The position numbers and the translations under genes are program-made. The notes under the pieces are model-generated. The model made no database searches. It saw only the letters and a list, made by a program, of their open reading frames with translations, and was not told where the DNA came from. 64,000 bases of DNA from a virus. Position 1 is the first letter of the stretch. Every line of letters starts with the position of its first letter. The stretch covers positions 32,001 through 96,000 of IMG/VR virus record IMGVR_UViG_3300030099_006395, one strand, 5' to 3'. Shown here piece by piece: positions 1,866 to 60,397 of the stretch.

Positions 1866-2669
1866 ATGTCAAAAGAAGCCAATAAAGATACAAAAAAGTC
1901 ACAAGTGGAAGAAATAAATCCAGAAGTGATTGAAGATGAAGAAGCTGACTCACCTTGGTATTATTTTTATTCACAAGGATGTGGTTGGTGTAAAAAATCA
2001 GAACCAATTGTAGATGAACTTAACAAAAACAGAGAAGAAGGTCAAGAAATATTAAAACTTGATTTAGCAGATCCTGATAATAGAGCACTTAACGAAGAAT
2101 TAAAAAAAGAATATAATATTCAATGTGGAACACCATGGTTTATTAATGAAGCTACTGGTAAAGGTATATGTGGATTCAGAGAAAAAGATATCGTTCAAAA
2201 ATGGTTAGATGGTGAAGATATTCCAGCACCACCTAGACCAAAAGGTCCTATTCCAAAACTTCCATTATTAGAAGCTCCTAAAAAAGAAGTTAATAAATGG
2301 AAAAAAGATTATGAAAAATGGTTAAAAGATAATGATCATTTACCTGATAATCAGAAAAAAAGTGTGGATGATATGTTGGCAATGCCTAGACCAAAAACAG
2401 ACCCACCAAAACCTCCAATGGCTAATATGTCAGATGATGAACTTAATAAATGGGCTGAAGAATATGATGAGTGGGCTAAAGTTAATAGTCATCTTCCAAA
2501 TTTACAACCGTCCAAAGTAATTCTACAGAGAATAAAAGGACAATCCCAACAACAAGCTGTCAATCAAGCACCAGCTATAGACAATGCAAAGTTAAATACA
2601 ATGGATGCTAAAATTCAAGCTCTTGAAGTTAAGATTGATAAAATAATGAGTCATTTTGGGGTAAAGTAA
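1866..2669 (+). CDS. Thioredoxin-fold protein with Pro-rich repeated C-terminal region
   Basis: YFYSQGCGWCKK (CxxC) and GTPWF cis-Pro loop; AGGAGA RBS. Confidence 0.75.
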   Translation: MSKEANKDTKKSQVEEINPEVIEDEEADSPWYYFYSQGCGWCKKSEPIVDELNKNREEGQEILKLDLADPDNRALNEELKKEYNIQCGTPWFINEATGKGICGFREKDIVQKWLDGEDIPAPPRPKGPIPKLPLLEAPKKEVNKWKKDYEKWLKDNDHLPDNQKKSVDDMLAMPRPKTDPPKPPMANMSDDELNKWAEEYDEWAKVNSHLPNLQPSKVILQRIKGQSQQQAVNQAPAIDNAKLNTMDAKIQALEVKIDKIMSHFGVK

Positions 2670-3098
2670 ATGGCAAGAAGGCGATTTAAGCCTAAAGTAA
2701 CTAGAGATAGAGAAGCTACTCAAGAAGAATTAAAGTGTATTGAACAAACAGAAGAGATGTTGGCGGGAGAGAAAAAACTTCCACCAGCATCTCAAATGAT
2801 TCGTGATTTAGCTACCACTCATTGGAAAACTTTGGGTGCATGGTTACGAGGTTCACAAACAATAGCTACTCAAGAAGAAGCTGCACGAAGATGGGCAATT
2901 TGTAAAGAATGTCCTCATCTTCTCTACGATGAAGTAAATCCAGACACCAATAAAAAAGATGGTAGATGTACTCATTGTGGTTGTTTTATGAATGTCAAAG
3001 TTCACTATGCAGTTGCTGATTGTCCTATCAGTAAATGGGAAAAAAAATGTGGATGTAATTCGGATTGTAAATGTGTAGATGGAGATTGTGATGAATAA
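2670..3098 (+). CDS. Cys-rich putative zinc-binding protein
   Basis: R-x3-CxxC...RCxxCGCF...K.....CPxxKW pattern plus Cys-rich tail. Confidence 0.6.
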   Translation: MARRRFKPKVTRDREATQEELKCIEQTEEMLAGEKKLPPASQMIRDLATTHWKTLGAWLRGSQTIATQEEAARRWAICKECPHLLYDEVNPDTNKKDGRCTHCGCFMNVKVHYAVADCPISKWEKKCGCNSDCKCVDGDCDE

Positions 3099-3423
3099 TT
3101 TAACAAAAGAAAAATTAGATACAATATTTAAAGATGGAAAAAATATAAGTGATAAACCAATTTATATAGATTTTTATGCAGATTGGTGAGGTCCTTGTAG
3201 GATGTTTAGTAGTGTACTAGACGAAGTTTCACCTGAATACAATGATAAGGTGAATATGTATAAAGTAGATATAGAAAAGGAAACAGACTTAGCCATAAAA
3301 TTTGGAGCTAGAGCTCTTCCTTACATGGTTTTTATTCCGAAAGAGGGTGAAATAACAGGAACTCCTGGAGCTTTAAGTAAAGACCAATTAAAATATTATT
3401 TGGATGGATTAATTTCTAAATAA
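3091..3423 (+). CDS. trxA: Thioredoxin with in-frame UGA at the nucleophilic Cys (putative selenoprotein, WUGPC)
   Basis: ATG 3091 behind GGAGA reads MNNLTKEKLDTIFKDGKNISDKPIYIDFYADW-TGA(3187-3189)-GPCRMF..., in frame with the 3202..3423 ORF; 110 codons, full thioredoxin length. Confidence 0.88.
3204..3222 (+). promoter_or_regulatory. Candidate bacterial-type SECIS hairpin
   Basis: GTTTAGTA-GTG-TACTAGAC, 8-bp stem with one G.U; G-starting apical loop begins 22 nt after the UGA. Confidence 0.6.
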
Positions 3424-9356: not shown

Positions 9357-11372
9357 ATGGATTATAAGAGATTTTCACTGTCAGATAATTTTATAGATGG
9401 TTACAAAAGAAAAAAACCCCCTTTCGGATTCAATGGATTAGGGGAACTTGTCTATATGAGAACTTATTCTCGTATAAAAGAAGACGGAAAAAACGAAATG
9501 TGGTGGGAAACTTGTCAACGAGTAGTTGAAGGTACTTACAACATGCAAAAAAAATGGATAGAATCACACCATTTAGGGTGGAATGCGTGGCAAGCTCAAA
9601 GGTCAGCTCAAGAAATGTACGACCGAATGTTTAATATGAAGTTTTTGCCACCTGGCCGAGGTCTATGGGCTATGGGAACACCAATCACAGAAGAACGAGG
9701 TTTATACGCCGCCCTTAACAATTGTGCATTTGTATCAACTGATAATCTCAAAGAGGATTTATCAAAACCATTCTGTTTCTTAATGGATGCTTCAATGGTT
9801 GGAGTTGGTGTAGGATTTGATACAAAGGGTGCAGAACAATTCGTAGTCAGAGGTCCTAAAACAGATAGAGAAACAGAAACATATGTAATACCTGATACAA
9901 GAGAAGGTTGGGTAGAATCTGTAAGACGATTATTAGATTCATACTTTCTTGGTATAACAGGTGTTAATTTTGATTATTCTAAAATTAGACCAGAGGGTGC
10001 ACCAATCAAAGGTTTTGGTGGTGTATCGAGTGGATACAAACCATTAGAAGAAGTACACAAATCTGTATCAGAATGTTTAGATAAAAACATAGGTTCACCA
10101 ATATCAATAACCACAATCGTAGACATAATGAATTTGATTGGTAAATGTGTTGTAGCAGGTAATGTTAGAAGAACTGCTGAAATAGTGTTTGGTGATCCTG
10201 AATCAGAAGAATATATTAATTTAAAAAATTATAAAAAGAACCCTCATAGAGAAATGTATGGTTGGACATCTAACAATTCAGTATTTGCTGAGTTAGGACA
10301 AGACTATACAGATATAGCAGAAAGAATTATAGACAATGGAGAACCAGGACTTGCGTGGTTAGATAATATGAAACACTATTCAAGAATGAAGAATGGTGGT
10401 GATGATAAAGACCATAGAGTTGCAGGTGGTAATCCTTGTCTTGAACAATCATTGGAATCATATGAATTATGTTGTTTGGTAGAAACATTTCCACATAATC
10501 ATAAAGATTTAGATGATTATTTAACAACATTAAAATACGCATATCTATATGCAAAAACTGTTACACTTGGAAAAACACATTGGCCTGAAACCAATCGTGT
10601 AATGTTGAGAAACAGAAGGATAGGTTGTAGTGTGAGTGGTATTGCACAATTCATTACACATAGAGGACAAGGTGAATTGAGAAATTGGTTGGAATCAGGT
10701 TATGATAAACTACAAGAGTATGATAAAAACTATTCAGATTGGTTTGCAGTACCTCGTAGTATAAAAACTACATCAGTAAAACCAAGTGGTACAGTTTCAT
10801 TGTTGGCTGGCTCTACACCAGGTCTACATTATCCAGAAAGTAGGTTCTATATCAGAAGAATTAGGTTATCGGTGAACTCACCATTAATCAAACCTTTAGA
10901 AAAAGCTGGTTATAAAATTGAACCTGCATTTGGTAGTGAAGATTCAACAGTAGTAATCGAAGTACCTGTAGATGTAGGTGAAGGAATCAGAACAGTGAGT
11001 GAAGTTCCAATGTGGGAACAAATGGCATTAGCAGCATTTATGCAAAGGTATTGGGCGGATAATCAAGTAAGTTGTACGGTTACATTTGACCCTGAAAAAG
11101 AAGGTCCTATGATAGCGACAGCACTTAACTATTTTCAATATCAGTTAAAAGGTATCTCATTCTTACCTAAATTAGAATTAGGTGCTTATAAACAAATGCC
11201 ATATGAAGAAATATCTGAAAAAAAATATAACGAAATGGTAAAGAAATTAAGTTTCTTATCATTCAGACAGGTAAAAGGTAATGAAGCTGAGATTGATAAA
11301 TTCTGTAATAATGACACTTGTGAAATTGATTTGGAAGCAATTAAAGAAACTCAAGAAATGGAGAACGCATAA
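9357..11372 (+). CDS. nrdJ: Class II (adenosylcobalamin-dependent) ribonucleotide reductase, monomeric RTPR type
   Basis: RTYSR, PPGRGLW, LNNC, GNVRRTA, NPCLE, TSVKPSGTVS, C-terminal FCNNDTCE. Confidence 0.93.
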   Translation: MDYKRFSLSDNFIDGYKRKKPPFGFNGLGELVYMRTYSRIKEDGKNEMWWETCQRVVEGTYNMQKKWIESHHLGWNAWQAQRSAQEMYDRMFNMKFLPPGRGLWAMGTPITEERGLYAALNNCAFVSTDNLKEDLSKPFCFLMDASMVGVGVGFDTKGAEQFVVRGPKTDRETETYVIPDTREGWVESVRRLLDSYFLGITGVNFDYSKIRPEGAPIKGFGGVSSGYKPLEEVHKSVSECLDKNIGSPISITTIVDIMNLIGKCVVAGNVRRTAEIVFGDPESEEYINLKNYKKNPHREMYGWTSNNSVFAELGQDYTDIAERIIDNGEPGLAWLDNMKHYSRMKNGGDDKDHRVAGGNPCLEQSLESYELCCLVETFPHNHKDLDDYLTTLKYAYLYAKTVTLGKTHWPETNRVMLRNRRIGCSVSGIAQFITHRGQGELRNWLESGYDKLQEYDKNYSDWFAVPRSIKTTSVKPSGTVSLLAGSTPGLHYPESRFYIRRIRLSVNSPLIKPLEKAGYKIEPAFGSEDSTVVIEVPVDVGEGIRTVSEVPMWEQMALAAFMQRYWADNQVSCTVTFDPEKEGPMIATALNYFQYQLKGISFLPKLELGAYKQMPYEEISEKKYNEMVKKLSFLSFRQVKGNEAEIDKFCNNDTCEIDLEAIKETQEMENA

Positions 11373-12199: not shown

Positions 12200-13537
12200 A
12201 TGTGGAACATAAAACTAATTAAAAATATATTTAAAGTATTTTGTTTACTTGGATTAATACTATTATTTTGTAATAGTTGTCAAGATTCAAATCCAATGAC
12301 AATGGAAGAACCTTGTTGTGTGAATCCTCCTGATTTAGATTTAAGGTCTGAAGAACAACATACGGTGATGCCTGGTGAACTACCACAACCAATGATTGTC
12401 GGTGGTGAGGAAGTAAACCCAGCTTGTCCTAATTGTAAATATGATTTCATGGTTTCATTACAAACAGATGGTTGGTTTGGTGGACACTTTTGTGGTGGTT
12501 CATTGGTTAGAGAAGATTGGGTTGTGACAGCTGCTCATTGTGTTCAAGGTACTTCACCAAATAGTATTGAAGTGGTTATCGGATTACATAATGTAAACGG
12601 AACTACAGGACAACAAACAAGAAATGTATCGGAAATAATCATACATCCACAATATAGTGGTAACTCTTTAAATAACGATTATGCTCTGTTGAGATTATCA
12701 TCACCAATCACAGATTTTGAACCGATTAAATTATGTACAGATACTGCACACGATGAAGAACCTGTAATGTCAACAACAATGGGTTGGGGAGCAATATATA
12801 GTGGTGGTCCTTCATCAAGTGTATTACTTGAAGTAGATGTACCCATTGATGATTCTTGTGGTAACTATTCTAATTCAGATATAACAAACAATATGGTATG
12901 TGCTGGTGATGGAAATGGTGGTGAAGATTCTTGTCAAGGAGATAGTGGAGGCCCTTTGATTATGACAAACTCTGATGGTGAGTATGAGTTAATCGGAATA
13001 GTAAGTTGGGGTTATGGTTGTGCTGAAGCTCAGTATCCGGGTGTGTACTCTAAAATTCATAGTAGATTAAATTGGTTCTTTAGTTACATTGGAGAACCTG
13101 AAGAAGATTTTGTAGTAGATTTATATGGTGATGTTAACTTTGATAATTCATTGGATATAACAGATGTTATATTATTGATTAACTTTGTTTTAGGACAAAC
13201 ACCAACAGAAGAGGAATCATTAACTGCTGATATGAATCAAGATGGTATTGTAAATATACTTGATGTGATATTGTTAGTTAATGAAATATTAGGAACAACA
13301 TTTAGTCAATCTGTACAATGGTTGGAAGAAAACTTTCCATCATTAAAAACAAAAGAAAGATTAAGTAAATTAGATAAATCACAATTTTTTGCAAAAAGAA
13401 ACAATTGTATTCAATTACAAAAAGAATTTGATATCTTACTAAAAGAATATGAAGAATTAGAAACAAGATATAGATTACTACAGAAATTAGATTTAGATAA
13501 ACAAAAAATTATAAAAAAATTATCGGAGGAAAAATGA
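12200..13537 (+). CDS. Secreted/lipoprotein trypsin-like (S1) serine protease with C-terminal dockerin-like domain
   Basis: Hydrophobic signal, IVGG, TAAHC, NDYALL, GDSGGPL triad motifs; paired GDVNFDNSLDITD / ADMNQDGIVNILD Ca-binding repeats. Confidence 0.9.
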   Translation: MWNIKLIKNIFKVFCLLGLILLFCNSCQDSNPMTMEEPCCVNPPDLDLRSEEQHTVMPGELPQPMIVGGEEVNPACPNCKYDFMVSLQTDGWFGGHFCGGSLVREDWVVTAAHCVQGTSPNSIEVVIGLHNVNGTTGQQTRNVSEIIIHPQYSGNSLNNDYALLRLSSPITDFEPIKLCTDTAHDEEPVMSTTMGWGAIYSGGPSSSVLLEVDVPIDDSCGNYSNSDITNNMVCAGDGNGGEDSCQGDSGGPLIMTNSDGEYELIGIVSWGYGCAEAQYPGVYSKIHSRLNWFFSYIGEPEEDFVVDLYGDVNFDNSLDITDVILLINFVLGQTPTEEESLTADMNQDGIVNILDVILLVNEILGTTFSQSVQWLEENFPSLKTKERLSKLDKSQFFAKRNNCIQLQKEFDILLKEYEELETRYRLLQKLDLDKQKIIKKLSEEK

Positions 13538-59966: not shown

Positions 59967-60040
<74 letters not shown>

Positions 60041-60043
60041 CAT

Positions 60044-60386
60044 GGGGTCGACATGGAATCGATTGCTAGATTTTTGACATAAAGTGCAAGTAGCGTGATT
60101 CACTCACGAATCAAACATACGATAATCGGCAACGAATATCAATACATGGCAGTAGCGTAGTCTACTTCCCATCACTCCTTGATTTCTGATAGAGGATAAA
60201 GTGGTGTCATATCAGAAGAACCTCCTTTATGAATGGGTTGGGAGAATACTAATTTACATTCCATCTTTGAGCAAACAGATGTAAAACAGTAATCTGACTT
60301 TGTTAATAAGAAAGAAATTAACTAAACTTGTAAATGACTTTATGTAGGAAACTGGTAAGACGGGGGTTCGAATCCCCCCGACTCCA
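60044..60386 (+). ncRNA. ssrA: tmRNA
   Basis: 5' GGGGTCG pairs with 3' CGACTCC-A including G3.U70; GGGGGTTCGAATCCCCC T arm; tag frame 60128-60160 GNEYQYMAVA*. Confidence 0.93.
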
Positions 60387-60397
60387 CAAATTAAACG

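Follow-up and report, generated by a model that had tools for sequence, protein, structure and literature searches.

Selenoproteins and the recoding of UGA as selenocysteine (Sec) are usually treated as cellular traits. The locus described here raises the question of whether a phage, too, encodes a selenoprotein: on the plus strand of a 64,000-nucleotide stretch of virus DNA, hereafter the window (bases 32001-96000 of the 113,475-bp IMG/VR virus record IMGVR_UViG_3300030099_006395, linear and ~63% complete by CheckV), a thioredoxin gene at positions 3091-3423 carries an in-frame TGA at the codon of its catalytic cysteine. As detailed below, the UGA is conserved, selection acts on the whole frame, the UGA is followed by a covarying hairpin, and a canonical tRNA-Sec gene lies on the same contig. 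We consider it highly probable, as far as sequence comparison can tell, that the gene encodes a genuine Sec-decoded thioredoxin, with the active site W-U-G-P-C, of an uncultured marine myovirus. Positions are those of the window unless otherwise marked; contig coordinates and those prefixed L001 refer to the same virus record, L001:8633-8727 being contig 103633-103727.

A thioredoxin frame interrupted by a single TGA

A ribosome-binding site, GGAG (3081-3084, plus strand), stands 6 nt before ATG 3091, which itself overlaps the stop of the upstream open reading frame (ORF) 2670-3098 (ATGAATAA); the start/stop overlap, GTGATGAATAA, is identical in the two closest relatives. From this ATG the frame runs through 110 codons to the TAA at 3421-3423, its sole internal stop being the TGA at 3187-3189 (codon 33), within DFYADW-TGA-GPCRM. 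The TGA occupies the place of the nucleophilic (first) Cys of WCGPC, and the codon of the resolving cysteine of the UGPC motif, TGT at 3196-3198, is invariant across all orthologues. Pfam PF00085 matched the read-through product over residues 12-104 (E 6e-22), spanning both halves, and the best solved relative, the 141-aa thioredoxin of PDB entry 3hxs, aligned with residues 13-108 across the UGA site (E 6e-29); at the sequence level, the assignment to the thioredoxins is thus unambiguous. The ORF caller reports only a 73-aa piece from ATG 3202. A first-pass annotation made from the letters of the window had described the start codon with its ribosome-binding site, the 73-aa fragment in the ORF list and the position of the only stop on the nucleophilic Cys, and had read the gene as encoding a Sec-thioredoxin; each of these descriptions held, and the Sec reading gained support from the comparisons that follow.

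The TGA is conserved and both halves of the gene are under selection

Related phage contigs were gathered via the thioredoxin protein, the neighbouring gp32 and the DNA pattern FYAxW-TGA-GPC. The thioredoxin gene was found at the same locus, upstream of gp32, in all of them. TGA was present at codon 33 in 23 distinct orthologues, down to 47% identity and from many samples, and TGT stood in the same column in six others (L099, L100, L104, L105, L108 and L176). This alternation, which the first-pass annotation had named as a check, supports the reading of codon 33 as Sec. Fifty-one more distant phage thioredoxins carried TGT or TGC in the codon 33 column. A metagenome scan with the orthologue alignment returned at least one further orthologue, the Cys-type L176, the matches listed being nearly all generic WCGPC thioredoxins. 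In a tree, the orthologue group received a support of 100/99, with Sec and Cys forms interleaved and their branching unresolved, so that the Sec form may have had a single origin. In L107, from position 1788 onward, the UGA-thioredoxin is directly followed by a second, diverged thioredoxin-like paralogue that has lost the active-site motif and carries Lys at the Sec/Cys column.

Codons adjoining the TGA vary synonymously among the orthologues (GGT/GGC/GGA and CCT/CCA). Across 16 TGA forms, which show no further stop and no frameshift, the pairwise ratio of nonsynonymous to synonymous substitution (dN/dS) had a median of 0.37 over codons 1-32 and of 0.33 over codons 34-110. Purifying selection acts on the gene both before and after the TGA, and the relaxed selection by which the first-pass annotation proposed that its reading might fail was not seen. 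These data bear directly on the possibility that the locus is a thioredoxin pseudogene created by a nonsense mutation, or an assembly error, as a single in-frame stop and the calling of a mere 73-aa fragment might suggest. The recurrence of the same TGA in 23 distinct orthologues, the presence of the phage's own C-terminal fragment on 35 contigs of the protein collection, a dN/dS of ~0.35 on either side of the TGA, and the conservation of start codon, ribosome-binding site and coupling to the upstream gene all speak against this explanation, which the conservation of the TGA and the selection data allow us to exclude for practical purposes.

Public protein collections tell the same story in fragments. 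In ocean metagenomes (Tara, ENA, JGI and NCBI), the C-terminal piece had matches in 87 protein clusters (E <= 1e-8), comprising 54 pieces of 72-74 aa cut at the TGA, 23 forms of 101-115 aa and 10 shorter pieces; an identical 73-aa C-terminal fragment is encoded by a 151-kb public contig. All 17 long forms read displayed DWWGPC, indicating that the TGA is called as Trp on short contigs. Gene callers thus systematically split or mistranslate the UGA-thioredoxin, and the public calls (P0005-P0080) are systematically wrong, some being fragments of 73 and 32 aa broken at the TGA and the others full-length DWWGPC forms. The calling of the 32-aa N-terminal piece as a separate gene in databases could be taken to favour a reading of the UGA as a regulated terminator or selenium sensor, from which mostly a 32-aa peptide would issue and the full-length protein only when selenium is available; Sec insertion always competes with termination by release factor 2 (RF2). 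There is no sign that the 32-aa peptide does anything by itself, its conservation corresponds to strand 1 and helix 1 of a thioredoxin, and such a sensor would be compatible with Sec insertion and need the same machinery. We regard it as very improbable that sensing is what the UGA is for.

A covarying hairpin follows the UGA

Downstream of the TGA, at 3204-3222 on the plus strand, lies a hairpin resembling a Sec insertion sequence (SECIS), with an 8-bp stem formed by 3204-3211 (GTTTAGTA) and 3215-3222 (TACTAGAC) and the loop GUG (GTG at 3212-3214; -6.6 kcal/mol). The stem begins 14 nt after the UGA and the triloop, which starts with G, 22 nt after it; an 8-bp hairpin with a G-starting loop had been described in the first-pass annotation. 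On the sequence of the window alone, the hairpin was not significant (z -1.6 over 121 nt). Its significance comes from comparison with relatives, the single sequence being insufficient.

Two forms of the hairpin were found among the relatives (positions counted with the U of UGA as 1). In the subclade of the window (four sequences), an 8-bp stem pairs 18-25 with 29-36 around the loop GUG, or GUA in one member. In the remaining 19 TGA forms, 20-25 pairs with 30-35 in a stem of 5-6 bp, and the loop is AGGU, or GGUC in L437, where it arises by two amino-acid changes that preserve GGU. The two forms have in common that position 25 is the last of the 5' arm and that GU stands in the apical loop; across all TGA forms the hairpin starts 14-16 nt after the UGA. 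Compensatory changes in the stem were scored over 13 sequences of the second form: pair 21-34 was UA in nine, CG in three and UG in one; pair 22-33 was GC in 11, AU in one and GU in one; and pair 23-32 was AU in 11 and GU in one, with one mismatch. Altogether 93.6% of the stem cells were paired, compared to 30-50% with slid partners, and none of 500 shuffles reached the observed covariation score, a result that bears out the covariation looked for on the strength of the first-pass annotation.

The 23 TGA forms, without exception, folded to between -4.4 and -8.5 kcal/mol (median -6.8; nt 13-42, the hairpin being at nt 18-36). The median for 49 Cys-type phage thioredoxins, which are mostly devoid of the hairpin, was -1.6 kcal/mol (Mann-Whitney p 3e-11 versus the TGA forms, uncorrected for relatedness). 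The CAG-GUG codons that form the AGGU loop are retained, and G-ending codons are presumably less favoured in a genome of 31% GC. All 23 TGA forms display the published hallmark of the bacterial SECIS, a stem-loop close behind the UGA whose small apical loop contains a guanosine (PMC1088965).

TGA is an ordinary stop elsewhere in the genome

To place the in-frame TGA in its genomic setting, all TGAs on both strands of the 113 kb were read through, and split genes and U-containing redox motifs were sought. No credible in-frame TGA other than that of the thioredoxin gene came to light. TGA terminates thirteen plus-strand genes of at least 80 aa, most of which overlap the start of the following gene as ATGA; among the ORFs terminated in this way are those stopping at 13537 and 18798, as the first-pass annotation had remarked. 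An alternative genetic code, or a late-gene recoding of stops, would have TGA mean Trp or Gly. Set against it are the 13 TGA-ending genes, the position of the one in-frame TGA of the 113 kb exactly at the catalytic Cys column, and the identity of the sole tRNA with a UCA anticodon, which is of the Sec type and not a 7/5 tRNA-Trp. Because TGA serves as a normal stop and only a single credible TGA lies in frame, we consider an alternative code excluded.

The phage contig carries a tRNA-Sec gene

ARAGORN and Rfam both identified a tRNA-Sec gene (selC) on the plus strand of the record at contig 103633-103727 (L001:8633-8727), 7.6 kb past the end of the window and 68.5 kb from the UGA-thioredoxin. 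The match to Rfam RF01852 covers the full length of the model (1-91) with 69.4 bits against a gathering score of 47. The acceptor stem, read by hand, has 8 bp (GGAAAUGU/ACAUUUCC), the D stem 6 bp (GUAUUC/GAAUGC) with the 4-nt loop CGGU, and the T stem 5 bp (UUGGG/CCCAA), acceptor and T stems together giving a 13-bp branch; the anticodon is UCA, the variable arm is long (a 22-nt region), the discriminator base is G73 and the CCA end is encoded. Judged by these features, the tRNA is of the canonical bacterial Sec type. The first-pass annotation had the phage borrow the host's Sec machinery, there being no sel genes in the window; this description of the window stands, whereas the proposed borrowing of the host tRNA-Sec does not, since the contig carries its own.

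Upstream of the tRNA-Sec gene, which begins 1 nt after its stop, stands a PNKP-type phosphatase gene; downstream come a conserved non-coding element and then a CobT-like gene, and these last two have phage relatives. These phage-type flanks place the tRNA inside the phage genome and outside any flanking host DNA. No integrase adjoins it, and the tRNA is a whole gene, not an attachment-site fragment.

Some further observations concern the surroundings and relatives of this gene. The non-coding element (~105 nt; L001:8724-8842, plus strand; contig 103724-103842) comprises a 7-bp hairpin followed by a 12-bp long-range stem (RNAalifold -37 kcal/mol), with compensatory substitutions in the 12-bp stem in L376, L377 and L380, which are relatives without tRNA-Sec; nothing in Rfam matched the element at E <= 1. 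A run of 10 N at L001:8439-8448, within the PNKP-phosphatase gene just upstream of the tRNA, marks an assembly gap or a masked stretch. ARAGORN also made tRNA-SeC calls with the same anticodon arm on two other IMG/VR contigs, of 64.8 and 15.8 kb (L169:2275-2371 and L170:4551-4650), at 42.1 and 32.9 bits, respectively, below the Rfam cut-off and thus of uncertain identity. A pattern drawn from the 3' half of the tRNA-Sec retrieved nothing from IMG/VR.

The structure of the tRNA also bears on whether the UGA might be read through without Sec, a phage tRNA(UCA) or a host suppressor inserting Ser, Cys or Trp and leaving a thioredoxin that is sulfur-only or inactive. CysRS requires U73, which the phage tRNA lacks; instead, it has the full bacterial Sec architecture, with 8/5 stems, a 6-bp D stem and G73. 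This discriminator base and the long arm indicate serine identity, in contrast to the cysteine mimics with U73 that Mukai et al. reported (PMC5389517). That study nevertheless gives the idea some standing, in that phage tRNAs with UCA anticodons on Sec-like, non-Sec scaffolds exist (PMC5389517), as does the rendering of codon 33 as Trp by gene callers on short contigs. Several points oppose it. A protein with Trp or Ser at the nucleophilic position would have lost its thioredoxin chemistry, which does not fit the purifying selection on this gene. Any suppressor acting generally would also run past the stops of the 13 TGA-ending genes, and the conserved GU-loop hairpin is what SelB-dependent decoding requires, whereas plain suppression has no use for it. 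We therefore deem read-through without Sec unlikely, if less so than the other alternatives.

Observations that weigh against Sec decoding

A number of observations do not favour Sec decoding of the thioredoxin gene, and they are gathered here. The first concerns the decoding apparatus. Neither selA, selB nor selD was found on the 113 kb of the record, which represent ~63% of the genome, an absence that would also suit read-through without Sec, and selD and selB were not found in five large relatives. The remaining third of the phage genome could hold more of the Sec apparatus. A tRNA-Sec above the Rfam cut-off was present in none of 20 related phage records (fragments, 6-71% complete), and close relatives have no tRNA at the equivalent spot upstream of the CobT-like gene, where a small hydrophobic ORF or nothing is found. 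The phage tRNA is thus no general requirement of the UGA-thioredoxin clade, and on present sequences it is best described as a variable accessory gene.

The second concerns the hairpin. The stem is identical across the four members of the window's subclade, whose own hairpin variant thus yields no covariation. One Cys orthologue, L105, retains the hairpin via two compensatory pairs, so that the hairpin is not strictly tied to TGA. L108, the sister of L105, lacks the hairpin, and the L105 peptide segment MFKQVLDEV recurs in forms of the protein collection that carry TGA, a pattern that would fit a recent Sec-to-Cys change. Finally, no Rfam family matched the hairpin region at E <= 10 except for two chance matches, as expected from the poor representation of bacterial SECIS elements in Rfam.

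Predicted route of Sec insertion and likely client of the thioredoxin

We infer Sec insertion at the UGA, the use of the phage tRNA for it and a dependence on host SelA, SelB and SelD. During infection, the bacterial route would place Sec at UGA 3187-3189, the hairpin that starts 14 nt further on acting as a SECIS that recruits SelB with GTP and Sec-tRNA-Sec to the ribosome. The tRNA-Sec would come from the phage's own selC, or from that of the host; it would be charged by the host seryl-tRNA synthetase (SerRS) and converted by host SelA with selenophosphate from host SelD, and host SelB would bind the hairpin and deliver Sec-tRNA-Sec at the UGA. As the phage carries selC, the host would be needed only for SelA, SelB, SelD and SerRS.

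The likely client of the Sec-thioredoxin is the class II (B12-dependent) ribonucleotide reductase (RNR) of the phage, encoded at 9357-11372 on the plus strand (Pfam RNR_Alpha 2e-43; RNR-II insertion domain 1e-14), 6 kb downstream of the thioredoxin gene in the same replication module. Its C-terminus bears a cysteine pair (FCNNDTCE), which the Sec-thioredoxin would most likely reduce before being itself recycled by the host thioredoxin reductase. Two genes directly upstream (1866-3098, plus strand) are translationally coupled to the thioredoxin gene and keep the same order in relatives. The product of the first (1866-2669, plus strand) has 267 aa, with a CGWC thioredoxin-fold domain at its N-terminus, assigned from its translation and a weak PF00085 match, and a long Pro/Lys-rich tail; the second (2670-3098, plus strand) encodes a 142-aa Cys-rich protein with 12 cysteines among its last 65 residues. 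Both may be partners of the thioredoxin in one redox relay, acting alongside it on the RNR. Whether the phage is partly autonomous for Sec decoding, its own selC serving its own Sec-thioredoxin, which in turn reduces its own B12-dependent RNR, is a narrower proposition, to which we give slightly better than an even chance.

The phage host

A tmRNA, the 8/5 tRNA-Sec, the SECIS within the ORF and a peptide deformylase together point to a bacterial rather than an archaeal host. The tRNA-Sec itself had little power to place the host more closely, its 17-nt anticodon arm being shared by tRNA-Sec genes of many phyla and its best full-length identity to other tRNA-Sec genes being 78%. The Flavobacteriia sites that match this 17-mer are not tRNAs, and the phage tmRNA had no BLAST relative in three Flavobacteriia genomes. 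In a host-inference search, 401 genomes of the G026 class (titled Acidimicrobiia) yielded only matches of ~77%, and three 1.1-Mb members (G033, G039 and G045) were among those with none. The genomes searched for host inference also included G028 and G282, flagged as unpublished, which underlie none of the claims made here.

The three 1.1-Mb members (L459, L460 and L461; 32-33.5% GC) possess a selD interrupted in frame by a TGA (GSG-U-ACK). About 33 nt beyond this UGA their selD genes share a conserved hairpin, its triloop being GUU or GUA, with compensatory changes between the genomes; their thioredoxins are ordinary Cys forms. This Sec-form selD is consistent with a preprint reporting universal Sec use in Actinomarina, an abundant marine lineage of low GC (10.64898/2026.04.03.716425). 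The same preprint describes Pelagibacter as lacking selC. No link between the phage and Actinomarina was found in our host-inference attempts.

Genome context

The phage has a GC content of 31%, and nearly all of its genes share one strand. A major head protein (phrog_138) and a tail sheath protein (phrog_23) are encoded on the record, which makes the phage a myovirus; its relatives derive from marine metagenomes, Tara included, and the carrier of the thioredoxin gene is, by these sequence criteria, an uncultured marine myovirus. Its nearest cultured phage by recombinase is Microcystis phage Mel-JY01 (53% identity). The replication module surrounding the thioredoxin gene includes, besides the class II RNR, gp32, a RecA/UvsX-type recombinase, a 5'-3' exonuclease, DnaB, PolB and a clamp loader. 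Further phage genes encode CobS-like and CobT-like proteins, UvdE, Mom, Hsp20, peptide deformylase, a tRNA-Arg and the tmRNA; UvdE, when used to query the protein collection, retrieved viral clusters only.

The tRNA-Arg(UCU) and, directly after it, a full-length one-piece tmRNA (Rfam 121.7 bits) lie at 59967-60387 on the plus strand. The tag peptide of the tmRNA, GNEYQYMAVA, appears unusual, as judged without comparison against known tags. Type I dockerin domains, unexpected for a marine phage, were found in a trypsin-like protease (12200-13537, plus strand) and in a 2178-aa protein (L001:874-7410, minus strand). Trypsin-like proteases are among the marine selenoproteins of the Global Ocean Sampling (GOS) survey (PMC2398784); the phage protease gene terminates at an ordinary TGA stop.

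Significance and comparison with known systems

An abundant marine phage clade thus appears to keep a UGA-encoded thioredoxin with its own SECIS, one member also carrying a tRNA-Sec. Selenoprotein genes would accordingly be carried and used by phages as well, and the marine selenoproteome regarded as 'bacterial' may in part be viral. If the proposed route is correct, oceanic phage DNA synthesis would be tied to selenium and cobalamin, and selenium may be a trace-element constraint on marine viral replication. The phage would also be the first bacterial virus shown to combine a selenoprotein gene with part of the apparatus for Sec insertion; the tRNA-Sec, the SECIS and a gene of reporter size would make a compact natural set for studying how recoding is upheld during infection.

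No published phage selenoprotein, and no pairing of a Sec-thioredoxin with a tRNA-Sec in a bacterial virus, was found in a literature whose coverage was incomplete. Two recent reviews and one prediction-method paper on prokaryotic selenoproteins make no mention of phages (PMC13188914, PMC9312934, PMC12013277), and few or no viral sequences figure among the selenoprotein families of a marine survey (PMC9402790). Sec-thioredoxins with UxxC (PF00085) are, for their part, an established bacterial family (PMC13188914, PMC1088965), the thioredoxin of Treponema denticola being one example (Kim et al. 2015, as cited in PMC13188914). Thioredoxin and thioredoxin-like 1 selenoproteins were reported from the Sargasso Sea and GOS metagenomes, and those of the thioredoxin type are common in ocean metagenomes (PMC1088965, PMC2398784). 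The phage protein shares with these bacterial Sec-thioredoxins the fold, the predicted Sec in place of the N-terminal Cys of CGPC, an in-ORF hairpin with G in a small loop and the existence of Cys orthologues. It differs from them in that its gene stands in the replication module of a tailed phage, beside gp32, recombinase, DnaB and class II RNR, and is kept across a marine phage clade. Some of the marine thioredoxin selenoprotein reads of the earlier surveys may have come from such phages, which the papers do not say (PMC1088965, PMC2398784).

The Basilisk-like Bacillus phages also have a predicted tRNA-SeC, the significance of which was called unknown, with no selenoprotein gene reported (PMC6145125, 2018). 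As in those genomes, a gene called tRNA-Sec is found here in a phage; unlike there, the tRNA scores above the Rfam cut-off, exhibits all the bacterial Sec hallmarks and shares its genome with a UGA/SECIS gene that would give it a role.

The phage hairpin can further be set beside the SECIS of Escherichia coli fdhF. The latter is a hairpin within the ORF, 11 nt after the UGA, with a GGU/GU apical loop, and directs SelB-dependent decoding. Both hairpins lie within the ORF shortly after the UGA and carry GGU or GU in the loop, and in most phage orthologues the upper part, GC-AGGU-GC, resembles the upper stem-loop of fdhF. The spacing in the phages is 14-16 nt instead of 11 nt, however, and the phage hairpin has no obvious bulged U; the variant of the window has an 8-bp A/U-rich stem and a GUG triloop. 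Phages that recode stop codons are a different case, in that here a single credible TGA lies in frame in 113 kb and 13 genes end in TGA.

Phage thioredoxins and glutaredoxins such as T4 nrdC feed the phage ribonucleotide reductase. Like them, the protein described here is a small thiol-disulfide oxidoreductase encoded in a nucleotide/replication module beside a phage RNR. Those proteins use Cys, whereas the present one is predicted to use Sec, and its RNR is of the B12-dependent class II. What sets this case apart is the carrier and its company: a phage clade with a predicted Sec-thioredoxin and, in this member, a phage-borne selC.

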